The position numbers and the translations under genes are program-made. Below, piece after piece: positions 19,634 through 39,902 of a stretch of 64,000 nucleotides of DNA; position 1 is the stretch's first letter; every line of letters starts with the position of its first letter. The DNA lies in NCBI GenBank assembly GCA_963759165.1, contig CAVWXK010000002.1, positions 320,231 through 384,230 of the forward strand, in the 5' to 3' direction. This DNA is from an uncultured Pseudomonadota bacterium. Lineage in GTDB: Bacteria > Desulfobacterota > Binatia > Binatales > Binataceae. Below the pieces are notes generated by a model that was not told where the DNA came from, did no database searches, and worked only from the letters and a program-made list of their open reading frames with translations.

Positions 19634-20308
19634 TTATGATCCTTGACGCCGGCCACCGCCGTTTGCCGTGCGTGAGGCCGAGAGCTTCGCGGGATTCGCC
19701 GCCCCGTCGAGAAACATCCGCGCCACCGTGGTAACGACCGTTTCGTCTGACAGTGGGTAGAGGTCCTTCCCGCCAGCCAGTTCCTGAGTCAGGAGAAAGA
19801 ACCACAGCATTCCGAACAGGCACTGAGCCGCCGCAAGCGCGTGCTGGCGTCTTAGCACTCCGCGTTTCATCCAGTGGTCGAGATAACTGGCCAGCGACTG
19901 GTAGGCGGGCAGGCCTACCCGCTCCGCGAACAGCCTGGCACGTTCGGGGTTACTCTGAATTTCGCGTACGATTACGCGCGCCAGTTCTTTGCGCTCCCGC
20001 AGCAGCCGCCAGGTTTCAGCGATCAATGTGGGAATCCCGATCGCCGGTGGAGTGTCTCCCAATGCGGCCACCATCGCTGGCAATTCCGGCAAAAGCGAGT
20101 AGCGGTCGAGAAGGCTCCGCAGCAGCGAAGCCTTGGACGGAAAGTATATGTACAATGCCGCTTTCGATAGTTCGGCTGCTACCGCGACCTGGTCCATTTT
20201 CGCTTCGGCGAAACCCGTCTGTGCGAAAACCCGCAGGGCGGCGCTCAGGATCGTCTCCCGGCGCGCCTGCGCAAATTCCTCGTGCTTGGCCGCAGCTACC
20301 CTTCCCAC
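19634..20308 (-). CDS. TetR/AcrR-family transcriptional regulator
   Basis: 224 aa with N-terminal helix-turn-helix RRETILSAALRVFAQTGFAEAKMDQVAVAAELSKAALYIYFPSK. First gene of the efflux operon. Confidence 0.85.
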   Translation of the reverse strand: MGRVAAAKHEEFAQARRETILSAALRVFAQTGFAEAKMDQVAVAAELSKAALYIYFPSKASLLRSLLDRYSLLPELPAMVAALGDTPPAIGIPTLIAETWRLLRERKELARVIVREIQSNPERARLFAERVGLPAYQSLASYLDHWMKRGVLRRQHALAAAQCLFGMLWFFLLTQELAGGKDLYPLSDETVVTTVARMFLDGAANPAKLSASRTANGGGRRQGS

Positions 20309-21793: not shown

Positions 21794-22333
21794 ATGGCAC
21801 ACCTGACTGTGAGCGTCGAATACGGTATCCACTGTCTGCTTTGGCTTGCCGGCTCGGACGGGACGGCACTGAGCAGCCGCGACCTGGCGGAGCTGCAGAG
21901 AATATCCCCGAGCTTTCTCGCCAAGATTTTCCCGAAGCTTGAGAAGGCCGGGATCGTCGAGGCGAGCGAAGGCGTGCGGGGCGGATATAGGCTTGCCCAA
22001 CCGCCGGAGGAAATCAGCGTCCTACAAATCGTCGATGCGATCGAAGGCGACAAGCCGTTGTTCGACTGTCAGGAAATCCGCAGACGCTGCGCGACGTTCG
22101 GAGAGGTGCCGCCAACTTGGGCGACGGCCGGCGTTTGCGCCATCCACGCCGTGATGCTGAGGGCGGAAAAGGTGATGCGAGACGAGCTTGCAGCCCATTC
22201 CCTCGCCGACTTGGCGACGACCTTCGCTGGCAAGGCGCCGGAGGAATTCCTCGCCCAAGTGCAGGATTGGATGACCGATCGTGTGAGCGCCCGCAAGCCG
22301 GGACGGCGCACCAGGCCCGAACCGCCATCCTGA
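21794..22333 (+). CDS. Rrf2-family transcriptional regulator
   Basis: MAHLTVSVEYGIHCLLWLA...SSRDLAELQRISPSFLAKIFPKLEKAGIVEASEGVRGGYRLA is a typical Rrf2 winged helix-turn-helix. Cys residues follow (CQEIRRRC...C). Confidence 0.85.
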   Translation: MAHLTVSVEYGIHCLLWLAGSDGTALSSRDLAELQRISPSFLAKIFPKLEKAGIVEASEGVRGGYRLAQPPEEISVLQIVDAIEGDKPLFDCQEIRRRCATFGEVPPTWATAGVCAIHAVMLRAEKVMRDELAAHSLADLATTFAGKAPEEFLAQVQDWMTDRVSARKPGRRTRPEPPS

Positions 22334-27261: not shown

Positions 27262-28470
27262 TCATGGCGACGGGTCCGAGTGCATGGGTTGCTGGGTCAA
27301 CAGCATCGGGCCGTACACGATCTCGAATAAGCCGAACGCCGCCATCCAGCACGCAGCCGACAAGGCAAGGAGAATCATCATGTCGTTTGTGTTCCAGGAT
27401 GCAGCGACTCGCGTGATCGCGGCGGCGTTGATGAGGACGAAGATGGCGACCGTTGCCCGGTTGGCAGTCAGTTCGCGCCCGGTATGTCCGAGCGTAACGC
27501 GGGGCATTACGGCGAGGATCATGGTGCCGATGGAGCCTGCGGTCAGCGCGTGGATCGCCGAAGCCACCGGAACTACGGTATCGAGAATCGAAAGTCCAAG
27601 AAGCGCCGTGCCGATCGCCACCCAGGCGTAGCCGAGATGCAAGATGAACAACAGTGGGTTTGCCCATGTCGAGCCGCCGGCCCAGCGGACAACCCGCCAC
27701 GCGTTGACTATGGCGGCGATGACCAGAATCATGCCGGCCACACGGAAATCGGGAAGCACAGCCCAGACAATAAACCCCGCGCAAAGCAGGCCGACCGCGG
27801 CACTGTCAACGGCGCTGTGAGCAGCCGGGAGACGCTCACTGTGGCGCTTGAGCAGCCAGTTGCGCGTGAAGCTCGGGATGATGCGCCCGCCTATCACCGA
27901 GATCAGCAGGATCGGCACCGCCAGCCCGAGGCGCCATCCGAGGCCGCTCGGTACGGGCATATCCAGAGACTCAAGGTGCATGAGCAAGTCGGCAATGATG
28001 AAAACCGCGAGGAGCGCGGTCATCGCCAGATTACGCCAGTTCCGGCTGACGATGATTTCGCGGGCAGCCACCGCGAGGAGCACCACCGGGAAAGACAAAT
28101 CGGCGACGATCGCCAGCCAAGCAGGAAGATCGGCCGAAATCAGGCAGGCGACGCGGCCGAGCAGCCACAGACCCGCGAGCAGAGCGAGCTGACAGCCCTG
28201 CACGGGCGGTCGACCGGTCCAGTTCGGAATGGCGGTCAGGAGGAACCCCGCAACCGCCGCCATCACGAAGCCGAACAGCATTTCGTGGATATGCCATGCC
28301 AGTGGGTCGAAGCGAGTCGGCGGGTGCAAGTATCCGAGGAACATGGCGAGCCACAGCGCGATAGCCAGGAGCGCCCAACTTCCGGCCGCGAGAAACAACG
28401 GGCGGAAAGCGTAAGTGAGCACCGCGGGCTGCCGTAGGCGGCGGGCGCGTTCTTCGGTCGTGGCGGTCAT
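27262..28470 (-). CDS. nnrS: NnrS-family haem/copper membrane protein (NO-response associated)
   Basis: 402 aa, polytopic, with the N-terminal block AFRPLFLAAGSWALLAIALW...DPLAWHIHEMLFGFVMAAVAGFLLTAIPNWTG typical of NnrS. Confidence 0.85.
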   Translation of the reverse strand: MTATTEERARRLRQPAVLTYAFRPLFLAAGSWALLAIALWLAMFLGYLHPPTRFDPLAWHIHEMLFGFVMAAVAGFLLTAIPNWTGRPPVQGCQLALLAGLWLLGRVACLISADLPAWLAIVADLSFPVVLLAVAAREIIVSRNWRNLAMTALLAVFIIADLLMHLESLDMPVPSGLGWRLGLAVPILLISVIGGRIIPSFTRNWLLKRHSERLPAAHSAVDSAAVGLLCAGFIVWAVLPDFRVAGMILVIAAIVNAWRVVRWAGGSTWANPLLFILHLGYAWVAIGTALLGLSILDTVVPVASAIHALTAGSIGTMILAVMPRVTLGHTGRELTANRATVAIFVLINAAAITRVAASWNTNDMMILLALSAACWMAAFGLFEIVYGPMLLTQQPMHSDPSP

Positions 28471-31944: not shown

Positions 31945-33069
31945 CTATACGACCGGAGCCTTGTGATAGCGCGTGAGCGGCACGGGACCGTCGGCGCTCA
32001 CCCACACTGTATCCTCGACCCGAACGCCGAACTCATCGCGATAGATTCCACAGTTGCCGATGCCGACGACCATCCCGGCTCCAACTTGCTCCACCTTCTC
32101 CTCACCGTGGATCACGGCATGACCACCCGGGATCGGTGCTTCCTCGTGCTCGATCCCAACCCCGTGGAAGACCGGACGGAGAAAGGCACCGCCGAAGCCC
32201 TGCTCGTCCAGCACGCGCGCCATCGATGAATCGATACCGAGTAATGGAGCGCCCGACGAAGCGGCCTTGATGCCTGCCTCTTGGGCCAAAATGTAGGCCT
32301 GGAGGGCATCGGCAACCTCCTTCGGCACGCTGCCGACGAGAACGGTCCGGCAAAGGTCTGCCGTGTATCCTTCTACGATTGGCGCCAAGTGAACCTGAAC
32401 GGCGTCGCCCGCCGCGATTTGCTTGGCAGACGCCGGGCCATGGGCCATCGCGGATCGCCACCCCGAAGCCACGTACGTCGCCGATGCCCAGCCCTCGGCT
32501 CCCGCCTTGCGCATGACGTATTCCGCCTCGCCTGCCACGTCGATCTCTCGCACACCGACTCGGATTGCTCATACCGCGGCGGCCATGCCCTGGTCCGCGG
32601 CCGAAGCTGCGGCCTTGATGCACTCGATCTCGCCACGCTCTTTGAGCATCCGAAGTCGTGAGAGAACCTGCGCCGCCGGCACTACCGTGGCCTGCGGCAA
32701 AATGTGCGCCTTGAAAACCTCATAGAGCGCCGCGTCGAAGAAGTTCTTCTCCAGCGCGATGGTCGCTTGGGTCAGACCCAGATCTTTCAGCACGTCTCGG
32801 AATCCGTGGAACATCTCCTCCTCGCTGCCGAATCCGCGGACCTCGGTGGCGGCCGACGCGGCACGGACGCTCCGAAGGTCGGAAGTCGGAACCGAGACGA
32901 TACATTGCAGCGACTTGGTGAAGAGACAAAGGGCGCAAGGGCGACCATCGCCGGTAAAGTAAGCCAGGTTGGCGGGCTTCATCAGGAACAGCGCATCGAT
33001 GCCCTTGGCTTCCATGAGCGAAGCGGCACGCGCCCAGCGGGCCTTGAAGTCGAAAGCTGGCGAACCCAT
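31945..33069 (-). pseudogene. M24-family metallopeptidase (Xaa-Pro aminopeptidase/creatinase-like) with an in-frame TGA at 32569..32571
   Basis: The N-terminal creatinase-like domain ORF 32569..33069 ends ...DQGMAAAV-TGA. The same frame continues AIRVGVREIDVAGEAEYVMRKAGA... through the pita-bread domain (HGVGIEHEEAP, VRVEDTV). Confidence 0.75.
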
Positions 33070-33189: not shown

Positions 33190-33720
33190 TCATCGTTTCA
33201 TGCGCTTTCGGATTCTCCGCCGCAGTCGAACTGCACCTTGAGATACAGGCATGCGCGCGGTGCCGTTTGCTGTCCACGACCGAACCGACGGCAATGCCAG
33301 GCGGAAGCGAAGTTTCGCGGGCCTCGCCAGAAGGTCGTGCAGAGTATAACGATCGAGTGTGGCTAGAAAGCTGTCACAGGCTTCTTGAAGAATACCCGCC
33401 AGTCGGCAGGCTCCGCTGATCACACAGCGGTTATCGGCTCCACGGAAGCATTCGGCGGGTTTAAACGCTCCTTCTGTGTAACGCACAAGTGCGCCGATAT
33501 TTATGTCTCGGGGATGGCGATCCAGGGTCATTCCACCGCCTTTTCCTCGATAAGTACGAATGAACCCGCCCCGCGCCAGCCCATGAACGACCTTCATTAG
33601 ATGATTGCGGGATATGCGATAGTCCTCGGCGATCTCGGAGATCATGGAAAGCTGGGGACGACGCAAGCCGAGATAGATCAGAACCCGTAAGGAGTAATCG
33701 GTATAGAACGTCAGCTCCAT
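33190..33720 (-). CDS. nsrR: NsrR-like Rrf2-family NO-sensing repressor
   Basis: MELTFYTDYSLRVLIYLGLRRPQLSMISEIAEDYRISRNHLMKVVHGLARGGFIRTYRGKGGGMTL plus the Cys triad CFRGADNRCVISGAC. Lies directly downstream of the hemerythrin gene and next to NsrR-type operators. Confidence 0.75.
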   Translation of the reverse strand: MELTFYTDYSLRVLIYLGLRRPQLSMISEIAEDYRISRNHLMKVVHGLARGGFIRTYRGKGGGMTLDRHPRDINIGALVRYTEGAFKPAECFRGADNRCVISGACRLAGILQEACDSFLATLDRYTLHDLLARPAKLRFRLALPSVRSWTANGTARMPVSQGAVRLRRRIRKRMKR

Positions 33721-33787: not shown

Positions 33788-34480
33788 TCATCCAGCCTGC
33801 ATCCTCAAGATTAGCTGCCTTCTTTCGTCCTGGTTCAGGATTTTGTCGGCCATTGGGTAGAGAACATCTTCCTCTTTGGCATCATGGCTGGTGAGCAAGG
33901 CCGAAGGATCAACCTGTTGGCCCTGAATCGTCTCCACTATCGTGCTGCAGGCCTGCGCCTTCGTGAGCGCGGACAGCTTTTCCAGCATAGCCCCTATCTC
34001 GCGGTGCTCGCGGCGCATCACAGCCGTCGGGCCAGTACCCCGCATGCCGGTTCGTTCTTCAAACACGGGAAAGAAAATCTGCTCTTCGACCTGGATATGA
34101 TGGCGCAAACCCAGGACGAACTCTGCAAGACGAGTCTGAATGCGACCGAGATTGCAGGCTTGAACTCCCTGCATACAGTCCTGCCAGAGCTCGGCAAGAC
34201 GATGATGATCGACGCCAAGAAAATCCGTGATCGACCATGCCTCGGTATTGTCGCGCTTGACGATCTTGACTCGCCACAGCTCAGGCCCTTGCTCCAGCCG
34301 CCACCAGTGGAAACCTCCGCTGTACTTCTGGCGAAATTCATCGAAGAACGGCTTCGGGTCATAGCTGGTGACAAGTTCCACGCTCTGCCCAGCGCGAAGG
34401 CCGTCAAAGGCTTCGAAGACTCGTTCGCGGCCGTCGCTTGGAAAGCTGTCGAATACCTCGATGCGTGCTGGTGCGTTCAT
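33788..34480 (-). CDS. DUF2249 domain fused to a hemerythrin-like (RIC/YtfE/NorA-type) di-iron domain
   Basis: The N-terminus FEAFDGLRAGQSVELVTSYDPKPFFDEFRQKYSGGFHWWRLEQGPELWRVKI is DUF2249. The C-terminus carries H/E-rich hemerythrin motifs (DHHRL, LRHHIQVEEQIFFP, REHREI, HDAKEEDVLYP). GGAGGA ribosome-binding site before ATG 34480. Confidence 0.75.
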   Translation of the reverse strand: MNAPARIEVFDSFPSDGRERVFEAFDGLRAGQSVELVTSYDPKPFFDEFRQKYSGGFHWWRLEQGPELWRVKIVKRDNTEAWSITDFLGVDHHRLAELWQDCMQGVQACNLGRIQTRLAEFVLGLRHHIQVEEQIFFPVFEERTGMRGTGPTAVMRREHREIGAMLEKLSALTKAQACSTIVETIQGQQVDPSALLTSHDAKEEDVLYPMADKILNQDERRQLILRMQAG

Positions 34481-34551
34481 CACTTTTCCTCCAATTCTAG
34501 TCCCGGCTCCGGTGGACCTCACGGGCTTTCGGTTGATCGGCTGATGTCCAA

Positions 34552-34574
34552 AAGATATATACAAGATATATCTT
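34552..34574. promoter_or_regulatory. NsrR-type 11-1-11 palindromic operator (box 1) within a bidirectional promoter-like region
   Basis: AAGATATATACAAGATATATCTT. Flanked by TTGATC-17nt-TATATA on the plus strand and TTGCAG-16nt-TATATA on the minus strand. 72 nt upstream of the hemerythrin start. Confidence 0.6.
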
Positions 34575-34733
34575 CTGCTGCAAGACCCCTAAAAGGCACC
34601 AAAGTAATGCTGCGGACGTCCAAAAACGGTCGGAAGAACTGGATAACGAATGATCCTGACAACCTACATCGATCAAGAGCTTGAGCGCGCTGGATGGAAC
34701 CAAACGACGGGCCTTTAGTGCAGCCGCTCGTTT

Positions 34734-36581
34734 TCATTCCGTCCTGCCATTCCCATGAGCCTTCCTCTTTTTATAACCCGCTACCTGCACGGACTGCGGC
34801 TTTAGAGGCCGCCTGCGAAGATCCAGAGCTCGCAGGATATCGGCTTTGGTGAGAATGCCTAGCAAAACGTCATCGGCGTCCGTGACCAGCAGCATTTGTT
34901 CGGGTTCGTGCCGCGCGAGCAGCATGAGCGCCTCTTCCACGTCGCTGCGCTCGTTGATTCGTACAGCCTCGCGTCGCGCGACCTCGGTCACCTTAGTCTT
35001 GGGCCAATCCTCTGCGGCAATCGCCGCAAGCTCCCATATTGAGATCAGCCCCACAGGCTTATTGGCAGCCAATACCGGAAAGACCGAATGCCGGTGTCGA
35101 CGCACCACATTATAGGCAAATTCCTGCAAGGTTGCGGCGCTGTCCACTGCGATTACTTGTGTTTGCATCACATCGCGTACCGGGACGCTCGTCAGTTCGG
35201 CGATCTTCACAACTTCGTGCAGGCGCTGATCCGCGGATACCGAGGCTTCACCGGAAACCGCATAGGCCATCGCCGCCCCGATCAGGGTGGGGATGATATA
35301 GGCGTGACCGCCCGTAGTCTCAGCCACGAACACGACTGCGGCCAGCGGAGCCTTGTAGGCCGCCGCGATAAACGATGCCATCCCGACTGCGGCATAGAGA
35401 TCGAAGGCCGGAGAATGAACCATTGATTGGCCGAAAATGCTTCCGAGCGCGCCACCCACCAGCAGCAGCGGGACGAACATCGCGCTGACCCCGCCGCTAC
35501 CCAAGGTGAAGATAGTCGCCGCCATCTTGGTTCCAGCAAAAGCGAACAGCGAGCTTGAGCTATGTGGCCGGCTTAAGAGCTCACGTACTGCTTCGTAGTT
35601 GGGCCCCAGCGGCATCAGCGGTTCACTGAAGAAGATGACGAACAGGAGACCGCACAGGCCGGTGCCCAAGCCGCCGATCAGAAGCTTTACTGTGTGCGGG
35701 ATGGGCGCAAGGATCGCATAGCCGCGCGCCCGGCGGAACGTGATGGCAAAGGTCATCGCAATCAGACCACAGAGTACTCCAAGTAGCGCTGACCAAAGCA
35801 GATCCCCTTCCGAAAAACTGGTGCTGCCAGTGAAGCCGAACAGCGGTTCCGAGCCGACGATCGAGACCAGCGTCGCATAGGCCACGACCGAACCGATTAA
35901 CGAAGGCAGCAGCGCCTCGTGTGCGAGGTCGTCACGATAGGGCATCTCTAGCGCGAACACTAAACCGGTGAGCGGAGCGCGAAACACCGCTGCCATGCCC
36001 GCCGCTGCCCCACTGATCAACATGATGCGACGGTCGCGATTCTCAAGCCCGAAGCGCCCGAGCCTGGTCCAAAGCCACGAACCGATAGCTCCACCACCGT
36101 AGATGCTCGGCCCTTCGAGAGCGGCACTGCCTCCGAAGCCAACGGTTGCGACCGCTGCCAGCAACTTCAGCCAGAAAGGCCTCATGTCGATGACGCCTTG
36201 ATGTTCGTGATAAGAGCGGACGATCTCTTCAGTTGAGTGTTCGTTTGGATCAGGAGTGCCCAACTGCATGACGAGGCCGGCAATCAAAAACCCAACCAGC
36301 AGACCGGGGACGATCGCCCAGTGATGCCTGTAATAATAAGGGCGCAGGAACGCCCATACGCCGTTCAGAATGACCTGGTTGATTCCGGTGATCACTAAGC
36401 CGGTCACGACACCGACTACGGGTGCGACAAGAAGCCACTTCTGTACGTCGCGTGAATAGGTCGCGGCTAAATCCTCATGAACCAAGGCGGTGTATTTGCG
36501 CCAGAGCGGATGGTTTAACCAGGGCGACTTTTGTAGCCAAGCCAGCGGCCTCACAAGCGGAACCGTCTCCTTTCGCGACAC
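34734..36581 (-). CDS. ClC-family voltage-gated chloride channel / anion:proton exchanger with a C-terminal CBS pair
   Basis: 615 aa with ClC selectivity motifs GSAALEGP, GGGVSAMFVP (GxFxP-like) and AAYKAP, followed by two CBS-like repeats (VRDVMQTQVIAVDS..., LLVTDADDVLLGILTKADILRAL). Confidence 0.9.
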   Translation of the reverse strand: MSRKETVPLVRPLAWLQKSPWLNHPLWRKYTALVHEDLAATYSRDVQKWLLVAPVVGVVTGLVITGINQVILNGVWAFLRPYYYRHHWAIVPGLLVGFLIAGLVMQLGTPDPNEHSTEEIVRSYHEHQGVIDMRPFWLKLLAAVATVGFGGSAALEGPSIYGGGAIGSWLWTRLGRFGLENRDRRIMLISGAAAGMAAVFRAPLTGLVFALEMPYRDDLAHEALLPSLIGSVVAYATLVSIVGSEPLFGFTGSTSFSEGDLLWSALLGVLCGLIAMTFAITFRRARGYAILAPIPHTVKLLIGGLGTGLCGLLFVIFFSEPLMPLGPNYEAVRELLSRPHSSSSLFAFAGTKMAATIFTLGSGGVSAMFVPLLLVGGALGSIFGQSMVHSPAFDLYAAVGMASFIAAAYKAPLAAVVFVAETTGGHAYIIPTLIGAAMAYAVSGEASVSADQRLHEVVKIAELTSVPVRDVMQTQVIAVDSAATLQEFAYNVVRRHRHSVFPVLAANKPVGLISIWELAAIAAEDWPKTKVTEVARREAVRINERSDVEEALMLLARHEPEQMLLVTDADDVLLGILTKADILRALDLRRRPLKPQSVQVAGYKKRKAHGNGRTE

Positions 36582-36644
36582 AAAGGCTCATCTATAATTA
36601 GACGAGCGTGGCTGTATGCGTACAGGGTAACCCAAAACTCCGCG

Positions 36645-36795
36645 CTACCTAGGCAACGTGAAAGGTTCGCGAGGAAGCCAAGCAGCTGCCGCCGCGCAAG
36701 TTACTTTCGCAACACTGCCTTCCCAATTCGCATCGCAGCCGTGAAGCCAGAACACGTTCTTTGCCAGATCGATCCCGAGAGTAGCGACCTGCATC
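36645..36795 (-). pseudogene. N-terminal stub of an IS110-family transposase
   Basis: MQVATLGIDLAKNVFWLHGCDANWEG matches the IS110 N-terminal DEDD motif (GIDLAK). It diverges after ~30 codons, with no remainder. Confidence 0.6.
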
Positions 36796-36944
36796 TTCAG
36801 ACCCTCCTCGCTTTGGTTGTTGGCGGTCGAATGTACCACCATGGCCCATTAAGGCCGTTATCCAAGCGGGGAGCGGTCCATCCCATCAATTTTCAATCGG
36901 CGACGCTGAGCCCCACGGACTTTCTGTTGATCATCGGTCCTAGA

Positions 36945-36967
36945 AAGATATATGTGAAATACATCTT
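36945..36967. promoter_or_regulatory. NsrR-type operator (box 2)
   Basis: AAGATATATGTGAAATACATCTT. The right half AAATACATCTT is identical to the E. coli ytfE NsrR site as I recall it (AAGATGCATTTAAAATACATCTT). Overlaps TTGATC-16nt-TATATG and lies 61 nt upstream of the DUF2249 start. Confidence 0.6.
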
Positions 36968-37027
36968 ACTCAAGGCCCCCTAAGAAAGCGCCGAAGTAAT
37001 GCTGCGCGTAACGAGGAGAAGAAGACG

Positions 37028-37285: not shown

Positions 37286-37598
37286 AAGCCTGCTGCGTTT
37301 GGCCAGAAGAGGCCCAACGGACTTCTGAGAGCTAACGCCTTGCGGAAGGAACCGAGCCGCCGTGCTGCGGTTGGAAAATTCGAACCGGCCTGCTAGGTGA
37401 ACTTTTGGCGTATGCTCTACCGCGCCGCACAAATCGCGTAGGTGCTGAAGCAGCAACGAAACAGGTTCTGCTTTGGTGAAAGAATATCGCATTTGAATTG
37501 CGGAGGTCTTGGCTCGCCGGGAACTGAGCCTCTGCTCCATGGGAGTACGGCGAACCAGACCTAACCAACGTTCGGCGCGGGACTCGGGGAGGAAAACC

Positions 37599-39902
37599 GT
37601 GGAAGAGCAGGAAACCCTCTCAGCGTGGTGGTGGCGGTCGGTTGTTCTGACAACCGTGTTTGGCTTTGCGCTCCTTGCCTGGCTTGCGGCACGGACGTAT
37701 AAGGACGCGCCACCGATTCCCAAACATGCGGTGAGCCAGTGGGGAGAGTCCCTCTTCTCGGGAGATGACATCCTTGCGGGACAACGTATCTTCCTCAAGC
37801 ACGGCTTGATGGAAAACGGCACGATTTGGGGCCACGGCGCCTATCTAGGCCCTGACTTCTCCGCCGAATACTTGCACACGCTGGCACTTGACGCTCGATC
37901 CATACTGGCGCGGCAGCGCTGGCACCGCGAGTTCGCGGACCTTTCTCCACAAGATAAGACCGCCGTAAGTGCGGAGGTGGAGCAGTCACTCAAACAAAAC
38001 CGTTACGATGATAAAAGCGAAACCTTGGTCCTTACTGATGCCGAAGCAGCCTCGTTCCGCGAACAACAGAACAAGTGGATGACGTACTTTTCGCGGCCGG
38101 AAGAGAACGGCGGCCTGCCGGCGAACTACATCAGCGACAGCCGAGACCTACGACAACTAACTGCCTTCTTCGCCTGGACGGCGTGGGCTGCAGTGGCGAA
38201 CAGACCGGGCAAACTTTACTCGTATACCAACGACTTCCCCTATGACCCTAGCGCCGGCAATGTCCCGACAGCCGATGCCGTGCTGTGGAGTGCACTCAGC
38301 CTGATAGCGCTACTGGTGGGAACCGCTGCGGTTCTCTTCGCCTTCGGCAGGTTCGACTTTTTGGGCTGGAAGCGAAGGGCGGACCATGTCCATCCTCGGA
38401 TGATTCCCGGCGCCACAACTGAAAGTCAAAAGGCGGCAATCAAATACTTTGTCGTTGCGGTCCTGCTTTTCCTTGCCCAGGTGCTGGTAGGTGGAGGTAC
38501 CGCTCACTATCGCGCGGACCCGGGAACGTTTTATGGCATTCACCTGTCTAATCTCGTGCCGAGCCACGTCCTTCGGACCTGGCATCTGCAGCTTGGCATC
38601 TTATGGATCGTGACGGCCTACGTGGCGGGCGGACTGTTCTTAGCGCCGTCGCTCGGCGGTATCGAACCTCGAGGCCAGGTTCTATGGGTCAACCTGCTGT
38701 TTGGTGCGCTGGTTACGATACTGGCTGGCAGCTTGCTCGGCGAGCTGCTCGGGCTAAGGCAGTTGCTCGGCAAGTTTTGGTACTGGTTCGGAGACCAAGG
38801 CTGGGAGTACCTCGACCTGGGTCGCGCCTGGCAGGTTCTTTTAGCTATTGGCCTTGCTCTATGGGCTGAGCTGGTAACCAGAGCTATGAGGCCGGCAATA
38901 AAGGATCGCGAACGAGGCGAGGTCTCGTCGCTCTTTTTATGTTCGGTAATCGCGATCCCGGTATTTTACCTGCCTGCCTTATTTTACAATGCCAATACTC
39001 ATTTCTCCGTGGTGGACATGTGGCGCTTTTGGATCATCCATCTTTGGGTGGAGGACTTCCTCGAACTGTTTGTGACCGCTTCGATCGCGATCATCGTGTA
39101 CCAGCTCGGCGTGGTCTCCGGCGCCACCGCAGCTCGCGTCGTTTATATGGACGCGCTGCTTTACTTGGGAAGCGGGATCGTGGGTACGGGCCACCACTGG
39201 TATTTCACCGGGCAATCGGTCATCACCATGGCGCTCAGCGCGACCTTCTCTGCAATGGAGGTTGTGCCGCTGACGTTGCTCACACTTGGCGCTTGGGACT
39301 TCATCCAGTTGAGCAAAGGAAGATGCGAACTATGTGGGAAGGAGATTCTTGTGCCGCACAAATGGACCTTCTACTTTCTCTTGTCGGTCGGATTTTGGAA
39401 CTTCTTGGGCGCTGGTGTCTTCGGCTTTCTGATTAATTTGCCGATCGTCAGTTACTTCGAGGTGGGTACGATTCTTACGCCCAACCACGCCCACGCTGCG
39501 ATGATGGGAGTTTTCGGCATGCTGGCCATCGCGCTGATGGTCTTCGCCTTCAGGCAGGTACTGTCAGATGACGAGTGGAGCCGTTTGGAAACATATGTCG
39601 CCCTCTCCTTCTGGGGCCTCAATGCCGGTCTCGCCCTGATGATTGTGAGCAATCTCTTTCCGGGCGGCGTGCTGCAACTCTATGACGTTCTCCGAAATGG
39701 TTACTGGCACGCAAGAAGCCCGGAGTTTCTGCATGCCGTTCGGCTTATCGAATGGCTGCGGCTTCCAGGCGACCTCGTCTTCATCGGCTTCGGTGTGCTC
39801 CCCGCGGTGCTCGTAGCCTGCTTAACCTACGTATCAATCCGGCGAAGACCGCCAGGCTACGTATTCAGCGGAAAAAGTTCGCAAGCTGGACTTCACATGT
39901 AG
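37599..39902 (+). CDS. norB: Quinol-dependent nitric oxide reductase (qNOR, NorZ/NorB long form)
   Basis: N-terminal TM plus periplasmic extension (YKDAPPIPKHAV...DDILAGQRIF...GHGAYLGPDFSAEYLH) fused to a 12-TM haem-copper-oxidase-like core (HHWYF, NHAHAAMMGVFG). GGGGAGG ribosome-binding site before GTG 37599; the track ORF starts at 37509. Confidence 0.9.
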   Translation: MEEQETLSAWWWRSVVLTTVFGFALLAWLAARTYKDAPPIPKHAVSQWGESLFSGDDILAGQRIFLKHGLMENGTIWGHGAYLGPDFSAEYLHTLALDARSILARQRWHREFADLSPQDKTAVSAEVEQSLKQNRYDDKSETLVLTDAEAASFREQQNKWMTYFSRPEENGGLPANYISDSRDLRQLTAFFAWTAWAAVANRPGKLYSYTNDFPYDPSAGNVPTADAVLWSALSLIALLVGTAAVLFAFGRFDFLGWKRRADHVHPRMIPGATTESQKAAIKYFVVAVLLFLAQVLVGGGTAHYRADPGTFYGIHLSNLVPSHVLRTWHLQLGILWIVTAYVAGGLFLAPSLGGIEPRGQVLWVNLLFGALVTILAGSLLGELLGLRQLLGKFWYWFGDQGWEYLDLGRAWQVLLAIGLALWAELVTRAMRPAIKDRERGEVSSLFLCSVIAIPVFYLPALFYNANTHFSVVDMWRFWIIHLWVEDFLELFVTASIAIIVYQLGVVSGATAARVVYMDALLYLGSGIVGTGHHWYFTGQSVITMALSATFSAMEVVPLTLLTLGAWDFIQLSKGRCELCGKEILVPHKWTFYFLLSVGFWNFLGAGVFGFLINLPIVSYFEVGTILTPNHAHAAMMGVFGMLAIALMVFAFRQVLSDDEWSRLETYVALSFWGLNAGLALMIVSNLFPGGVLQLYDVLRNGYWHARSPEFLHAVRLIEWLRLPGDLVFIGFGVLPAVLVACLTYVSIRRRPPGYVFSGKSSQAGLHM

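Follow-up and report, generated by a model that had tools for sequence, protein, structure and literature searches.

We analysed a 64,000-nucleotide stretch of DNA (the window) from an uncultured bacterium of the family Binataceae (assembly GCA_963759165.1, contig CAVWXK010000002.1, positions 320,231 to 384,230). The genome consists of two contigs of 3.27 Mb (C1) and 0.58 Mb (C2), 3.85 Mb in total, with the window on C2. Two sets of nitric oxide (NO) defence genes lie in it (Table 1). One set reads leftward and comprises a gene that fuses a DUF2249 to a hemerythrin domain and, behind it, a gene for an Rrf2-family regulator; the other reads rightward and comprises a stand-alone DUF2249 gene and the gene for the quinol-dependent NO reductase qNOR. 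Between them stand a ClC gene with a CBS pair and an IS110-family insertion sequence (IS) stub, and each set is preceded by a copy of the same module, which carries a 23-bp palindrome. Our reading, to which we give a probability of roughly 0.8, is that the palindromes are operators of the adjacent Rrf2 protein, a predicted NsrR-type [4Fe-4S] regulator, and that the modules represent an ancestral divergent region that was duplicated. The preliminary description of this DNA had assigned the DUF2249-hemerythrin, Rrf2, ClC-CBS, IS110, DUF2249, qNOR and NnrS sequences correctly. The gene map bears out its placing of module 1 ahead of DUF2249-hemerythrin-nsrR, leftward, of module 2 ahead of DUF2249-qNOR, rightward, and of the IS110 stub between module 2 and the ClC start; DUF2249 and hemerythrin, which it took for two genes, are parts of a single fused gene of 230 codons.

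The two modules form a direct repeat of slightly greater length than the approximately 100 bp first described, at the three-quarters identity and in the shared orientation that had been noted. Positions 34504-34614 and 36898-37006 are identical at 85 of 115 aligned positions (74%) in a local alignment, and the full units (34493-34614 and 36888-37006) at 72% in a global one; the alignment scores 66 with both modules in the same orientation but 21, owed to the palindrome alone, when one of them is reverse-complemented. The similarity extends well beyond the palindrome, since with the palindrome left out 27 of 35 positions are identical in the left block (L), a value equalled by one of 5000 random genome 71-mers, and 26 of 30 in the right block (R), which none of 5000 equalled. 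Only two full copies of the module occur in the genome (BLAST E 3.4e-6). In a five-way alignment the homology runs from just after the leftward ribosome-binding site (RBS) to just before the rightward one, and the module flanks are not conserved in the 63%-identical Binataceae loci. Each palindrome has the 11-1-11 build, coordinates and letters previously given, with 9 of 11 arm pairs complementary. The shape AAGAT-N13-ATCTT occurs four times in the 3.85 Mb and its reversed control not at all.

To identify the palindromes, loci of Rrf2 orthologues (47-64% identical, from several phyla) were first scanned for the box shape AAGAT...ATCTT, and a weight matrix was then refined to 117 sites from 80 loci, with the window genome excluded. 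Its consensus is AAGATGTATTTAAAATACATCTT, and most of the sites, which are frequently arranged in tandem, fall 30-100 bp ahead of the Rrf2 gene. In a scan of the whole genome the two palindromes are the top two sites, box 2 ahead of box 1 (Table 1), and none of 20 000 composition-preserving shuffles of either box reached the observed score. They thus score well above background AT-rich sequence; a score no better than background was an outcome that the preliminary description had named as telling against it. The genome-wide search for further boxes that it had proposed added none: the third-best site (C1:2789533, 14.3 bits) and another at C1:2793460 (11.9 bits) both lie within long open reading frames (ORFs) and were not counted as regulon sites. 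Upstream of nnrS, where no box had been seen before, the maximum is -17 bits. The Escherichia coli ytfE operator, read from NC_000913.3 as AAGATGCATTTAAAATACATCTT, reaches 32.5 bits under the matrix; palindrome 2 is identical to it in 19 of 23 positions and in all 11 of the right half, as the preliminary description had stated. Among 8-mers counted without any seed within the 160 bp that precede each of the 80 orthologues, AAGATGTA/TACATCTT are the most enriched (65x, 24 loci), and the window's own variants AGATATAT and AAGATATA are enriched 70x and 36x. Sites of at least 16 bits are 79x denser in the same 160 bp than in the rest of the loci. A literature search with the operator's exact letters gave no match, and no FNR/DNR-type boxes (TTGAT-N4-ATCAA) were found in the modules by eye.

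It is very improbable that the repeats stem from a mobile element, as its ends or as relics (an IS110 end or a miniature inverted-repeat transposable element), or are chance AT-rich palindromes, with no regulatory role. An IS110 end does abut module 2 and a partial block L exists elsewhere, but homology with the second IS110 copy does not extend into the module, ending at 36887, no IS lies beside module 1, and the two full copies have no Rfam match; moreover, the boxes match a cross-phylum operator and precede NO-defence genes, and the block-L-like matches in relatives fall in coding DNA. The IS110 stub, whose translation begins MQVATLGIDLAKNVF..., is 70% identical to the copy at C2:553965-554119, and the alignment begins precisely at window position 36887. 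On the same grounds, the end of this homology and the lack of an Rfam match, the module was rejected as an IS110 end or bridge-RNA region. The partial block L, at C1:3029670-3029711 (L149/L160), is identical to module 1 at 33 of 40 positions, including CTTTCGGTTGATCGG; it lies in a non-coding stretch of about 600 bp with no NsrR box and no related genes nearby. Block L was also considered as a family-wide regulatory motif and rejected: it has 35 one-mismatch matches in 150 genomes, and the 19 that we fetched from other genomes lie inside ORFs of more than 120 codons without NsrR boxes.

The neighbouring Rrf2 protein, whose closest relatives are encoded in metagenome-assembled genomes of Candidatus Binataceae (63% identity), has the NsrR equivalog as its best NCBIfam match (114 bits) and is 40% identical to E. 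coli NsrR. Its best match in the PDB is Streptomyces coelicolor NsrR (5N07, E 2e-19), aligned end to end, and its predicted ligands D8, C91, C99 and C105 (numbered from MELTFYTD) align with D8/C93/C99/C105 of that protein and with the E. coli cysteines. Seven Rrf2-type genes are present in the genome, and the six other paralogues score no more than 57 bits against the NsrR model. Judged by these comparisons the protein is of the NsrR type, outside the narrow equivalog, which upholds in this wider sense its earlier designation as NsrR. With so many Rrf2-type genes, and with this one below the equivalog cut-off, the palindromes might be bound by one of the paralogues, such as that at 21803-22216, or by an unrelated factor, while the neighbouring Rrf2 recognises something else. 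We regard this as improbable, because the motif sits directly upstream of orthologues of this very Rrf2 in many phyla, with the enrichment given above, because the paralogues are poor NsrR matches, and because the experimentally known ytfE site is matched so closely.

Box 1 precedes DUF2249-hemerythrin by 72 bp, and box 2 precedes DUF2249-qNOR by 61 bp. Rightward, both modules contain TTGATC-17-TATATA/TATATG; in the leftward direction the sequences are TTGCAG-16-TATATA (module 1) and TTGAGT-17-TATCTT (module 2). All five aligned regions keep a CTTG that closely follows the box on its right and could supply the TTG of a leftward -35. With the hexamers in these putative positions, the box would overlie the -10 and the spacer in both directions, which is the usual geometry of repression. 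The -10-like hexamers said to overlap the palindromes are present, but they are weak (4/6) and not called by a sigma-70 consensus scan, which found no promoter in module 1 and one chance-level match in module 2, none of it convincing.

As inferred from characterised NsrR proteins, a holo-dimer of the Rrf2 protein would sit on each 23-bp box, across the core promoter, and NO would nitrosylate the cluster and release the protein. Derepression would then run leftward from module 1 into DUF2249-hemerythrin and nsrR, with negative autoregulation, and rightward from module 2 into DUF2249 and qNOR. The boxes and the regulator type thus support the proposal that the DUF2249-hemerythrin-nsrR and DUF2249-qNOR genes are under autoregulated NsrR-type control. 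The Rrf2 gene starts 67 nt downstream of the fusion gene, with no terminator predicted between them; the gap from DUF2249 to qNOR (37286-37598) is unusually long at 313 nt and likewise has no predicted terminator. The gene call for qNOR in L105, a sequence of the same strain, begins at the GTG, and the alternative TTG would add 30 residues. Full-length homologues of the 230-residue fusion protein are known at 64-87% identity, its matches to YtfE/RIC are weak, and its DUF2249 domain is only 40% identical to the stand-alone DUF2249. A COG4309 (DUF2249)-norB pair has been predicted as an NsrR target in beta-proteobacteria (Rodionov et al. 2005, PMC1274295) and DUF2249 genes of Haloferax are induced under denitrification (PMC11218638), so the predicted circuit is of a known kind.

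Table 1. Features of the NO-defence locus (window positions unless a contig is named)
Feature	Position	Strand	Remarks
NnrS	27262-28470	-	identity confirmed
nsrR-like Rrf2 gene	33190..33720	-	176 aa from ATG 33720; alternative open GTG 33732; Pfam Rrf2 1.9e-31
DUF2249-hemerythrin fusion, 230 aa	33788..34480	-	would lead the leftward operon; Pfam DUF2249 residues 18-75, Hemerythrin 84-211
Module copy 1, 122 bp	34493..34614	.	leader/block L 34504-34538, operator, block R 34586-34614
Predicted NsrR-type operator 1, AAGATATATACAAGATATATCTT	34552..34574	.	27.4 bits, rank 2 in genome
119-bp spacer, module 1 to ClC stop	34615..34733	.	inserted segment begins
ClC-type anion channel/exchanger with CBS pair	34734..36581	-	apparently relocated core gene; Pfam Voltage_CLC, CBS
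IS110-family transposase stub	36600..36887	-	left end 36887; 5' part, ~65 codons, frameshift and stop, 3' part missing
Module copy 2, 119 bp	36888..37006	.	block L 36897-36931, operator, block R 36976-37006
Predicted NsrR-type operator 2, AAGATATATGTGAAATACATCTT	36945..36967	.	29.1 bits, rank 1 in genome
Stand-alone DUF2249 (COG4309), 85 aa	37028..37285	+	Pfam DUF2249 1.6e-26; RBS GAGGAG at 37013
qNOR, quinol-dependent NO reductase	37599..39902	+	GTG 37599, RBS GGGGAGG; or TTG 37509; Pfam NorB_cytochrome_c-like, COX1
Empty native ClC site	C1:1,162,203-1,162,487		basis: gene order in both same-genus genomes

Closer relatives, found through a protein database and then read at the level of their contigs, carry the two operons unsplit. 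In L175 (71-77% DNA identity) qNOR and DUF2249-hemerythrin diverge from one region of about 190 bp with a single box of 30.4 bits, and this arrangement recurs in L172, there with a decayed qNOR and a single box of 25.0 bits; L175 has no gene recognisable as DUF2249 ahead of qNOR. Two genomes of the same family, G013 and G008, also have a divergent layout, with a (DUF2249-)hemerythrin gene and Rrf2 on the left of the box region and hemerythrin-DUF2249 on the right; G013 has one box of 31.4 bits, and G008 two boxes 103 bp apart. The two modules are 72-74% identical to each other and 43-54% to L175 and 35-41% to L172. Right of the box, modules 1 and 2 share 73%, against 34-40% between modules and outgroups. 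Left of the box, module 1 is 55% identical to L175 and module 2 only 34%. As the leftward operon has its leader in this stretch, the divergence of module 2 fits relaxed constraint where the leftward gene is gone. The left end of the IS110 stub at 36887 coincides precisely with the position that the leftward RBS has at module 1.

The simplest reading of these comparisons is that one divergent intergenic region was duplicated in this lineage and that the ClC/IS110 segment now stands between the copies. The ancestral single-box region would have driven both operons divergently, as it still appears to do in the relatives; with the whole region duplicated and the relocated ClC and truncated IS110 ending up between the copies, each operon would have kept its own operator and promoter. 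The order of the steps can be sketched in three possible ways: a single event with a long target duplication, insertion into a tandem duplication formed beforehand, or a Campbell-type integration. What the preliminary description called promoter paralogy therefore holds as to the duplicated module, and is better described as one ancestral divergent region duplicated around an inserted segment.

A history without duplication is unlikely, though it is the most serious competitor. The boxes would still be real, and two NO cassettes (Rrf2-hemerythrin and DUF2249-qNOR, each together with its upstream region) would have been acquired separately from related donors and have inserted on either side of ClC, which would make the modules xenologues. 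IS scraps make the region a mosaic, same-genus genomes lack the island, the modules are no more than 72-74% identical, the two DUF2249 domains share only 40%, and the NnrS of G013 is 80-90% identical to that of the window, against 64% for Rrf2, a hint of exchange. Yet the modules are closer to one another than to any other sequence found, block R especially; their homology covers the intergenic region exactly, between its two RBS-proximal edges, and does not continue into the inserted segment; and the relatives carry both operons at one locus. In G013 (L115, G013:C22, 5309-6438) we also observed that an NnrS gene broken across several frames, 74-91% identical to the window's, lies beside the Rrf2-hemerythrin pair. 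The higher identity of this NnrS than of the adjacent Rrf2 (64%) hints at separate histories of parts of the island.

The gene now standing between the modules is, by its distribution, a vertically inherited family gene: ClC is present in 90 of 121 family genomes, with 80% and 76% identity within the genus and about 60-68% elsewhere. In both congeners it adjoins genes whose orthologues here are neighbours on C1, about 300 bp from each other and with no intervening ClC, and the genome's sole ClC of this type stands between the modules on C2. ClC thus seems to have relocated to the NO locus. Its flanks, the congeners and the empty C1 site are too diverged from one another for placing breakpoints. 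The spacer between module 1 and the ClC stop has no similarity to the DNA right of module 2 or to the remaining genome, and a search beyond module 1 for the remains of a rightward gene found none.

Strain variants of the locus were compared as well. The L105 sequence is 99.98% identical to the window and, being of the same strain, adds no independent evidence. In L171 (93% identical) the module 1 operator reads AAGATATATACAAAATACATCTT and scores 30.1 bits, with a right half equal to that of box 2; compared with module 1 of the window, 40 of 40 positions are identical right of the box and 50 of 59 left of it, and TTGATC has become TCGATC. A 461-bp deletion, corresponding to window positions 34193-34653 and with a TC microhomology at its junction, is common to L173 and L174, which come from two samples and are 94-96% identical to the window. 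The deletion takes the DUF2249 domain and the entire module 1, leaving a chimeric, truncated hemerythrin ORF of 134 aa and an intact Rrf2 gene directly downstream of ClC; the L173 and L174 contigs contain no NsrR box.

This arrangement allows a speculative extension, which we consider unlikely. Module 2 might also fire leftward through the IS110 stub, which would make ClC, conceivably a nitrite/nitrate or chloride exchanger, inducible by NO; in L173 and L174 this NsrR-controlled transcript would also carry hemerythrin and nsrR, and the relocation of ClC would not be a neutral accident. If so, a housekeeping gene would have been caught in the course of its recruitment into a stress regulon by duplication of an operator module. 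The relatives do not bear out the earlier hint that ClC belongs to the NsrR regulon: no NsrR box of at least 12 bits was found at the ClC orthologue loci of 29 relatives, and no ClC lies within the 80 Rrf2-orthologue loci. Directly ahead of the ClC start, where the IS110 stub adjoins, lies a hairpin (36586-36607, minus strand; 9-bp stem, weak T tract) that is conserved in L173 and could act as an attenuator of transcription running from module 2 into ClC.

Several points weigh against our reading of operators and a duplicated divergent region. The seed shape AAGAT...ATCTT came from the window itself, which makes the matrix partly circular, a concern countered by the k-mer counts made without a seed and by the positional enrichment. 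Under the shorter core gATGyAT-N5-ATrCATc of Rodionov et al., box 2 has one mismatch and box 1 two; the genome has two sites, box 2 among them, with at most one mismatch to this 14-position consensus, and 17, including box 1, with at most two, against nine for the reversed control, so that box 1 does not stand out by this measure. Much of the discrimination of the boxes is supplied by the outer AAG/CTT and the A/T-rich centre. The Rrf2 protein falls below the cut-off of the NsrR equivalog (NF008240, 114 against 182 bits), with RirA nearly equal at 109 bits; the model is enterobacterial-based, and one of nine control genomes with a match passes the cut-off. The promoter hexamers (TATATA/TATATG/TATATC) lack the final T, and co-transcription of DUF2249 and qNOR across the long gap is assumed. 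Finally, the direction of the ClC move rests on two congeners, and duplication and insertion may have been one event or several.

Known systems share parts of this arrangement. In Ralstonia eutropha norA-norB, a hemerythrin-like di-iron protein is likewise encoded with qNOR; there the operon is under activation by sigma-54/NorR instead of repression by NsrR, and NorA is not fused to DUF2249. The operators of S. coelicolor NsrR are GC-richer and its regulon consists of hmpA1, hmpA2 and nsrR, whereas the predicted targets here are qNOR and hemerythrin genes; it is nevertheless the best structural relative (PDB 5N07/5N08), with equivalents of Asp8 and Cys93/99/105. E. coli NsrR offers a three-cysteine Rrf2 repressor, 11-1-11 operators at ytfE and hmp and a di-iron hemerythrin-type target, but half-site positions 6-7 are AT here and GC/GT there, and nsrR would be autoregulated here in an operon behind its target, an arrangement absent from E. 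coli, where the gene is flanked by purA and rnr. The beta-proteobacterial COG4309-norB genes (PMC1274295) have the same order, a DUF2249/COG4309 gene and then norB, with an NsrR box ahead; they differ in that the locus described here, in another phylum, has no DNR/FNR box and a second DUF2249 that is fused to hemerythrin and linked to nsrR. In Neisseria, NsrR boxes likewise lie in a region shared by the divergent NO-metabolism operons norB and aniA(nirK) (PMC1274295); its two sites stay in one intergenic region, whereas those in the window are duplicated and stand 2.3 kb apart by way of ClC and the IS110 stub.

Our knowledge of NsrR itself is unchanged, as this is an ordinary predicted NsrR regulon with one curiosity, the duplicated two-way promoter. 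What is new is the unsplit layout in relatives, the duplication with a ClC/IS110 insert, the strains with a deletion of copy 1 and the lack of a ClC-NsrR link in 29 relatives. The textbook NO-stress circuit of NsrR, a 23-bp operator and qNOR and di-iron targets would thereby extend to Binataceae-like bacteria, uncultured soil and sediment organisms without experimental genetics, for which two exact operator sequences are now available for testing. The locus also provides a further case in which the unexplained DUF2249/COG4309 domain accompanies NO reductase and hemerythrin genes under predicted NsrR control. The series from the unsplit region, through duplication around an insert, to the 461-bp deletion suggests a way in which a bidirectional promoter can be divided while both operons stay under control, and the strain variants are natural material for testing autoregulation.

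Two minor observations concern the rest of the window. A second Rrf2-family gene lies at 21803-22216 on the plus strand (Pfam 3.5e-34, 38 bits against the NsrR model), and 1.6 kb from it, at 20141, is a 12.5-bit NsrR-like match that was not counted in the regulon; both are probably unrelated to the circuit. At 32554-32556 an in-frame TGA splits an M24 peptidase gene; the 97%-identical protein of L173 is intact (374 aa) and has an Arg codon at this position, so the TGA is a strain-specific nonsense change.

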